64,000 nt of DNA from an uncultured archaeon. GTDB lineage: Archaea > Asgardarchaeota > Lokiarchaeia > Sigyniarchaeales > SOKP01. This document shows, one piece after another, positions 54,735 through 61,753 of the stretch. The stretch spans positions 1 through 64,000 of the forward strand of contig CAYLZE010000007.1 in assembly GCA_964388035.1 (NCBI GenBank), written 5' to 3'. The notes under the pieces were generated by a model. That model ran no database searches. It saw only the letters and a program-made list of their open reading frames with translations, and had not been told where the DNA came from. Position 1 is the stretch's first letter. Each line of letters starts with the position of its first letter. Both the position numbers and the translations under genes were made by a program.

Positions 54735-54839
54735 TAGTCCCGCCCGGATTTGAACCGGGGTCTCGGGATTTCTCCACGTCCGAACGGCTAATAAGAACAT
54801 TTCAGAGTCCCAAATGCTTGGCCGCTACACCACGGGACT
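54735..54839 (-). tRNA. tRNA-Gln(CUG) with 32-nt intron at 37/38 (54770..54801)
   Basis: AGTCCCG/CGGGACT acceptor stem (A1-U72), anticodon CTG at 54805-54803, GTTCAAATC T-loop. Full BHB motif (CTCT/GGAG helix, GAA and AAA bulges). CCA not encoded. Confidence 0.96.
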
Positions 54840-60872: not shown

Positions 60873-61505
60873 ATGGACAAGGTGAAAATTGGAGCTATAG
60901 CTTCTGGATCGGGGTCTAATTTTGAAGCTGTTGTTAAGGCATGTGAAACGGGAATTTTAAAGAATAAGGCAACCGTGGAAGTGCTAATTTGTAATAAAGC
61001 AGGAGCGTATTGCATGGAGAGAGCTAAAAGCCATTTAATCCCATATTATTTAATAGAATCAAGCGAGCATGAGGGGACGAGAGAAGAATTTGATGCAAAA
61101 ATGGTTCACGTTTTAAAAAAACACGAGTGTACTTTGGCCATTTTAGCGGGATACATGAGATTTGTAAGCCAATATTTTATTGAGGCGTTTAAGGGTAACG
61201 TCATGAATATTCATCCCGCTCTATTACCTTCGTTTAAAGGCATGCATGCCCATAGGGATGTTCTAAATTATGGCGTGAAAGTTTCGGGATGCACTGTTCA
61301 TTTTATTGATGCAAAGGAGGATCACGGTCCGATTATCATACAAAAGTGCGTGCCCGTTTATGATACTGACACGGAAGTAACTTTAGGAGCAAGAGTGTTG
61401 GAATTTGAACATAAAATTTTTCCTAAGGCAATTGAACTTTTTTGCGATAATCGGCTTCATGTAGATGGAAGAATAGTACGAGTTGATGGAGAAGTTACTT
61501 TATAG
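60873..61505 (+). CDS. purN: Phosphoribosylglycinamide formyltransferase
   Basis: SGSGSNFEA, LAGYMR, NIHPALLPSF.G, GCTVHF, DHGPII.Q, EH. Confidence 0.96.
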   Translation: MDKVKIGAIASGSGSNFEAVVKACETGILKNKATVEVLICNKAGAYCMERAKSHLIPYYLIESSEHEGTREEFDAKMVHVLKKHECTLAILAGYMRFVSQYFIEAFKGNVMNIHPALLPSFKGMHAHRDVLNYGVKVSGCTVHFIDAKEDHGPIIIQKCVPVYDTDTEVTLGARVLEFEHKIFPKAIELFCDNRLHVDGRIVRVDGEVTL

Positions 61506-61539
61506 AGAACTTAATTTATCATCTTTTTTTTAATATATT

Positions 61540-61665
61540 GGGAAATGGCAATTTATGATTGTTCTGACCCATCTGATATTGGAGTTTTCAATAAATGAAG
61601 AAGATCTTGAGTTCTGACTTTTTTATTCCCTCTCCTTCTATATTAGAGGGAATAAGTCATTTCCC
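61540..61665 (+). ncRNA. Candidate C/D-box sRNA enclosed by a 10-bp terminal stem
   Basis: C-like ATGATTG (61555), D' CTGA (61573), hairpin TATTG/CAATA, C' ATGAAGA (61595), D CTGA (61614), with 11- and 12-nt spacers. Also an 11-bp hairpin 61623-61655 and a terminal stem 61540-61549/61656-61665. Confidence 0.6.
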
Positions 61666-61753
61666 TTTACATTTTCCTTAATTTATAACACCAAACTTTT
61701 AATCAAACTAAATATGAATTTTATTAGACTTTTTTAATTAGGATGGAAAAAAA

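Follow-up and report, generated by a model that had tools for sequence, protein, structure and literature searches.

We found that the segment at 61540-61665 of the window (the whole 64,000-nt stretch of DNA that was analysed) is, as judged from its sequence and from that of its relatives, the gene for a single-copy box C/D-type guide sRNA. What appears to be new is a guide arm that is invariant across the order and seems to co-evolve with a tag in a tRNA intron, the spacing between the tag and the wobble base being constant. We consider it probable that, taken as a whole, this is a C/D sRNA whose D guide directs formation of Cm34 in tRNA-Leu(CAA), whose D' arm docks on intron tags, and whose 3' hairpin has no conserved role. 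The guiding of Cm34 in tRNA-Leu(CAA) is textbook archaeal RNA biology, of a known kind; for the pairing or docking of a D' arm on an intron we found no published description.

A box C/D-type RNA and its relatives

The boxes, spacers and stems listed in a preliminary description of this DNA were all found where it had placed them, on the plus strand. The 5' strand of a terminal stem (GGGAAATGGC, 61540-61549) is followed by a degenerate C-like box (ATGATTG, AUGAUUG in the RNA, 61555-61561), which agrees with RUGAUGA at 5 of 7 positions, a caveat already entered in that description. There follow an 11-nt D' guide spacer (TTCTGACCCAT, 61562-61572; UUCUGACCCAU when written as guide, with the core UCUGACCC), the D' box (CTGA, CUGA in the RNA, 61573-61576), an internal hairpin between D' and C' (TATTG-N7-CAATA, UAUUG-N7-CAAUA in the RNA, 61577-61593), the C' box (ATGAAGA, AUGAAGA in the RNA, 61595-61601), a 12-nt D guide spacer (AGATCTTGAGTT, 61602-61613; AGAUCUUGAGUU as guide) and the D box (CTGA, CUGA in the RNA, 61614-61617). 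The 3' strand of the terminal stem (GTCATTTCCC, 61656-61665) forms 10 bp with the 5' end, one of them G-U, and is reached only after an insertion (61618-61655) that is present in this genome only among 43 homologues and consists of a 5-nt linker and a perfect 11-bp hairpin (61623-61655, with 61623-61633 pairing with 61645-61655). The 126-nt stretch has a minimum free energy of -36.2 kcal/mol (z = -3.2; 2 of 200 shuffles were equally good), and in the corresponding fold both the terminal stem and the 3' hairpin are formed.

A covariance model built from ten relatives and searched in 151 genomes of the order detected the sRNA as a single copy in 121 of them, comprising 109 of 131 genomes in family f1 and 11 of 14 in family f2, with weaker matches in family f4, where the C boxes are canonical (AUGAUGA or GUGAUGA); no second, paralogous copy was found in this genome. 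A search of relatives with intergenic DNA placed the conserved core, of ~80 nt, at 61540-61617. Conservation of the element is far beyond chance. When 43 homologues were fitted to the model, a procedure that somewhat favours the structure, double changes affecting both sides were present in 16 of 16 modelled pairs, that is, in all ten of the terminal stem (7+3) and all six of the internal hairpin, and paired cells amounted to 90%, a figure that was 65% after shuffling and 35-66% after sliding of the partner column. The internal hairpin of the preliminary description is therefore genuine and covaries family-wide, its six modelled pairs all being compensated.

The boxes were also compared in these homologues. 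The D' box conforms to NNGA in 43/43 homologues and to CNGA in 41/43, the C' box to UGNNGA in 41/43, and the spacers of 11 and 12 nt occupy the same offsets in every one of the 43. The terminal boxes C and D are degenerate across the family, retaining a G-A core, and canonical in distant members: the UGA core of box C stands at its fixed offset in 35/43 homologues and box D reads NNGA in 37/43, the present copy being one of only two with canonical CUGA. In relatives, a 10-15-bp stem abuts the boxes. Between D' and C', a covarying hairpin (11-57 nt across the family, 17 nt here) takes the place of the short K-loop linker (about 3-9 nt) of archaeal box C/D sRNAs. In this copy the hairpin abuts D', and 3' of it a 3-nt bulge (AAU, 61594-61596) precedes a GA (61597-61598) that faces the GA of D'; read from the sequence, the C'/D' motif is thus shaped like a stem-bearing kink-turn and not like a K-loop, and the internal hairpin would be the canonical stem of that kink-turn. 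A D'-C' kink-turn with a stem is found in many eukaryotic snoRNAs, and here would be a snoRNA-like trait in archaea that are said to be close to eukaryotes.

None of the 4227 Rfam families reached its gathering threshold; those that came closest were models of eukaryotic snoRNAs, which still fell far short of it (E = 1.2-6.5). Among the characteristics of archaeal box C/D sRNAs we found the C/D and D'/C' boxes, spacers of ~12 nt, a target at D+5 and the genes for the proteins: those for Nop5 and fibrillarin are adjacent in this genome (C92:11248-12718) and there are two L7Ae-family genes. The sRNA would thus assemble with L7Ae, Nop5 and fibrillarin, all three of which are encoded in this genome. 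The suggestion that the element is an unannotated box C/D-type guide RNA is borne out by its conservation, boxes, spacers, covariation and tRNA targets.

The extra 3' hairpin fared differently. It had been taken as part of the RNA, but 61618-61655 is absent from the 42 other homologues, including that of a same-genus genome, and in these the 3' stem strand lies within about 4-12 nt of the D box, with no hairpin. Within the insertion the 3' stem strand recurs twice, once in degenerate form and once inverted, so that it looks like a local duplication-inversion; a search for further copies in this genome found none, and a mobile element was rejected on that ground. It is the distal strand (GUCAUUUCCC) that pairs with the 5' end: where the 5' strand ends in C instead of U, the distal strand has a compensating G (A in relatives), and an adjoining A-to-G change leaves a G-U pair. 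Because these 38 nt part the D box from the 3' stem strand, a standard terminal kink-turn is doubtful in this copy, and that motif may have been altered by the insertion, which appears to be lineage-specific and without a conserved role.

The D guide and the wobble base of tRNA-Leu(CAA)

The D guide core GATCTTGAGT is invariant in all 43 homologues, and the invariant core GAUCUUGAGU pairs without a mismatch to ACUCAAGAUC of the tRNA-Leu(CAA) anticodon arm. Against the tRNA-Leu(CAA) gene of this genome (G000:C31:19047-19160), the guide forms 11 pairs (10 Watson-Crick and one G-U) that place the wobble base C34 at D+5, the fifth pair from box D. This is the best match among the tRNAs detected; tRNA-Leu(UAA) is next, with 9 Watson-Crick and two G-U pairs. 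The preliminary description had derived both of its D+5 target strings correctly without being able to place either, and had suggested an orphan guide as a fallback. That fallback no longer applies, as both targets have been placed: AACU[C]AAGAUCU corresponds to the tRNA-Leu(CAA) anticodon loop, the target nucleotide being C34, and the second string belongs to an intron tag of pre-tRNA-Met.

In Pyrococcus abyssi, sR47 methylates C34 of tRNA-Leu(CAA) in vitro (PMC3413156). Compared by target rather than by sRNA sequence, the present D guide resembles that of sR47, since it is complementary to GACUCAAGAUCC of the same anticodon arm and addresses the same target in the same D+5 geometry. From this characterised case and the rule for the family, we infer that fibrillarin would 2'-O-methylate C34 of tRNA-Leu(CAA) to give Cm34; the pairing itself is shown by the sequences. 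Unlike sR47, the present sRNA has a covarying hairpin of 11-57 nt, not a short loop, as its D'-C' linker, degenerate terminal boxes, and a D' guide aimed at tRNA introns.

Besides the tRNA-Leu(CAA) gene, all of the near-exact D-target sites checked in this genome lie in ordinary sequence and occur at chance frequency. rRNA was rejected as the target of either guide. In a scan of this genome's partial LSU, a same-genus full LSU and the SSU and LSU of two complete genomes of the order, no convincing ungapped match was found for either guide, and the best (10/11) has a central mismatch and is not conserved. No SSU rRNA gene was found in the assembly of this genome (G000), and of the LSU only the 3' half is present (C23:53762-55777), where 2016 nt for 1550 model positions suggest expansion segments.

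Several observations concern the tRNA genes themselves. The tRNA-Leu(CAA) gene (L167) is interrupted in its variable/T-arm region by an intron of about 30 nt, because of which ARAGORN types it as tRNA-Ser(CGA) with an anticodon-loop intron. Another intron-containing tRNA lies in the window on the minus strand (54735-54839; 45 bits against the Rfam tRNA model); ARAGORN assigns it to "Pyl(cta)" and gives it an intron of 32 nt, an assignment that is probably artefactual and due to where the intron was placed. With only 19-22 tRNAs detected in a genome of 5.5 Mb, it is probable that many intron-rich tRNA genes were missed. The D guide holds an 8-nt palindrome (AAGATCTT, 61604-61611) that would permit the sRNA to pair with itself; the palindrome probably just follows from the sequence of the tRNA target.

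The D' guide, the intron tag and a proposed docking

The D' guide core UCUGACCC, invariant in 42/43 homologues, is complementary to a tag, GGGUCAGA, and in relatives TGGGTCAGA lies within the intron of elongator tRNA-Met. The core of the second predicted target string, AUGG[G]UCAGAA, thus proved to be a conserved tag of the elongator pre-tRNA-Met intron. Near the anticodon, GGGTCA was present in 30 of 30 retrieved tRNA-Met loci and GGGTCAGA in 28 of 30, with variable flanks. In each of the 22 genomes holding both genes, the guide spacer forms 8-10 contiguous Watson-Crick pairs with its own pre-tRNA-Met, a level of pairing that permuted guides reach 0-22 times in 2000. The usual pair, in most genomes, is UCUGACCCA with UGGGUCAGA; a compensated pair, UCUGACCCU with AGGGUCAGA, is found in two separate genera (G010 and G032), and the nucleotides at both ends of the duplex covary between guide and tag in several genomes. 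In the fourth family (f4) the register is shifted, with GACCCUUU against AAAGGGUC in G031 and, in G029, a guide UGACCCUAUU against AAUAGGGUCA of its congener G027. A Fisher-type count for the ninth guide-tag pair, which ignores relatedness, gave p of about 0.09 and is no evidence on its own. Across these genomes, the D' guide and the pre-tRNA-Met intron tag are complementary and, by the pattern of their sequence changes, co-evolving.

An elongator tRNA-Met gene was not found in the present assembly with ARAGORN, the Rfam tRNA model or BLAST with the genes of two relatives, so for this genome the D' target is shown only through relatives; in the same-genus relative the guide-tag match is 8 bp. 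No meaningful site for the D' complement was found in this assembly, where TGGGTCAGA occurs at 11 other sites. CUGA and GAUG strings in the tRNA-Met intron were considered as C/D boxes and rejected, being better explained as strands of the intron's own helices.

The position of the tag points to nucleotide 34. In 24 tRNA-Met loci the tag follows C34, its third G being 21-25 nt downstream, and in five whose intron is on the other side of the anticodon this G is 22-23 nt upstream, so that the distance to C34 stays near 22 nt despite the side that the intron takes. Such constancy, with the intron 5' or 3', suggests that nucleotide 34 is the relevant site. As to the introns themselves, that of tRNA-Met is 3' of the anticodon in most genomes (L086-L099) and 5' in the five (L100, L102, L108, L112 and L114), and the 5'-side introns hold a pseudo-anticodon remnant, ACUCAU, as if the intron had switched sides.

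A related tag, GGGTCAAGAC, occurs in a D-loop intron of tRNA-Leu(UAA) at 20 of 22 loci, and the tRNA-Leu(UAA) tag lies 23-27 nt upstream of nucleotide 34 in 22 of 23 cases. In this genome it gives 7 contiguous pairs with the D' guide, a less perfect match than that of the Met tag. The fit of the Leu(UAA) tag to the guide of the same genome extends over 10 positions in G030 and over 8 in G031. The tRNA-Leu(UAA) gene of this genome (L166; G000:C62:17896-18040, minus strand) apparently has two insertions in the D-loop region, one of them with the tag (GGGUCAAGACC). By contrast, tRNA-Leu(CAA), the sole perfect match of the D guide, has no tag. When the three wobble-guide cores were searched in this genome, only that for Leu(CAA) was in a C/D context; no separate Met or Leu(UAA) guide was found, although with so simple a pattern this is a weak negative.

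The geometry of the tag, its absence from tRNA-Leu(CAA) and the lack of a separate Met or Leu(UAA) guide together favour docking, in which the D' arm would hold the ribonucleoprotein (RNP) on the intron-containing precursors of tRNA-Met and tRNA-Leu(UAA) and could let an imperfect D guide still act on nucleotide 34 before the intron is removed. On this pattern of sequences, docking is most likely the purpose of the D' pairing. There are real difficulties: the D guide has two internal mismatches to the tRNA-Met anticodon loop and a G-U pair at the target nucleotide 34 of tRNA-Leu(UAA), and a Watson-Crick pair at N+5 has been reported to be essential (PMC6009581). We put forward only tentatively, as something that may well not hold, the fuller proposal that one C/D RNP serves three tRNAs, acting perfectly on Leu(CAA) and reaching Met, and perhaps Leu(UAA), only after D' docking ~22 nt away.

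The register shifts also bear on whether the D' guide could instead be a conventional one, which would 2'-O-methylate the intron G at D'+5 or cover the intron hairpin and so govern how the intron is spliced or what becomes of it once excised. They move the D'+5 nucleotide from the third G of GGG, as in most genomes, to the first G, as in G031, and thus suggest that the pairing, rather than methylation of one intron base, is conserved. Because of this variation, and because the distance from the tag to nucleotide 34 is kept whichever side the intron takes, we regard a conventional D' guide as unlikely, even though the pairing has the usual guide geometry (the duplex begins 1-3 nt from D') and the tag shares nucleotides with the 3' strand of the intron hairpin, beside a predicted bulge-helix-bulge region, so that binding of the sRNA would remodel the splice substrate.

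Within the intron, the UCAGA of the tag pairs with UCUGA, and the Leu(UAA) tag is similar to GGUCAA of the D-loop, so that structure could account for part of the conservation. It might accordingly be supposed that Cm34 of tRNA-Leu(CAA) alone is guided and that the D' arm is idle, its intron match being shared structural sequence or chance, and orphan guides are indeed common in archaeal C/D sRNAs (PMC6009581). However, the invariance of the D' core, the compensatory and register-shifted changes between guide and tag, and the persistence of the tag without a UCUGA partner in family f2 make an idle arm quite improbable.

In eukaryotes, accessory base-pairing of box C/D snoRNAs with the substrate, near the methylation duplex, helps the guide to act. 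Docking of the D' arm would likewise be a second pairing near the methylation duplex, but one made through the canonical slot of the D' guide, with an intron that is subsequently removed. Pyrococcus has wobble-base guides for the same group of tRNAs at the same position, namely Leu(CAA), Leu(UAA), Met and Trp (PMC7994747); there, each tRNA has a separate, fully matched guide, whereas here the Leu(CAA) guide is the only one found in a C/D context, and the Met and Leu(UAA) precursors instead have an intron tag for the second arm. Box C/D-guided formation of Cm34 on intron-containing tRNA precursors also has a parallel in Haloferax volcanii, with sR-tMet and the pre-tRNA-Trp intron guide (PMC4033218, PMC11408192), although in its tRNA-Trp the intron itself is the guide and here the intron is a second target site for a trans-acting sRNA. 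What archaeal tRNA introns are for is an old question, and docking, if true, would give them a concrete function, with introns being kept as landing pads for modification machinery; it would show one guide serving several imperfectly matched substrates, and would represent an archaeal forerunner of the accessory pairing of eukaryotic snoRNAs.

Genomic setting and candidate promoters

The sRNA lies between genes for a PurN-type formyltransferase and for an EF-G/EF-2-family GTPase (the EF-2 paralogue), an order that is conserved in most relatives, some members being beside only one of the two genes. A TATA-like sequence, TTAATTTAT (61511-61519, plus strand), 21-29 nt upstream of the first G of the RNA and partly in the purN stop region, is a candidate for the sRNA's own promoter. 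Downstream of the sRNA, and outside it, is a promoter-like motif of the EF-2 paralogue, AAACTTTTAATC (61693-61704, plus strand), and the motif AAAnTTTTAATC recurs 3' of the sRNA in relatives. A conserved TATA-like motif between the sRNA and the start of the EF-2 paralogue argues against a 5'-UTR element, and promoter-like motifs on either side suggest an independent or purN-3'-derived transcript rather than a leader of the EF-2 paralogue. An L7Ae-bound kink-turn element regulating the purN or EF-2 paralogue mRNA in cis, of the L7Ae-bound kind that the preliminary description had raised as a fallback and for which one could cite the retained gene order and the L7Ae-based translational control that reportedly exists in archaea, is hardly credible given this intervening motif, the members that adjoin only one of the two genes, and the fact that the invariant parts are not the boxes but the antisense spacers, whose complements are in tRNAs.

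In relatives, the purN stop region reads AAATTATAA at a similar distance upstream of the sRNA. The last codons of purN and its stop (61490-61519; ending in GAAGTTAAATTATAA in relatives) are TATA-like and lie at promoter distance from the sRNA, and to judge from their sequence the end of the purN gene may double as the sRNA promoter.
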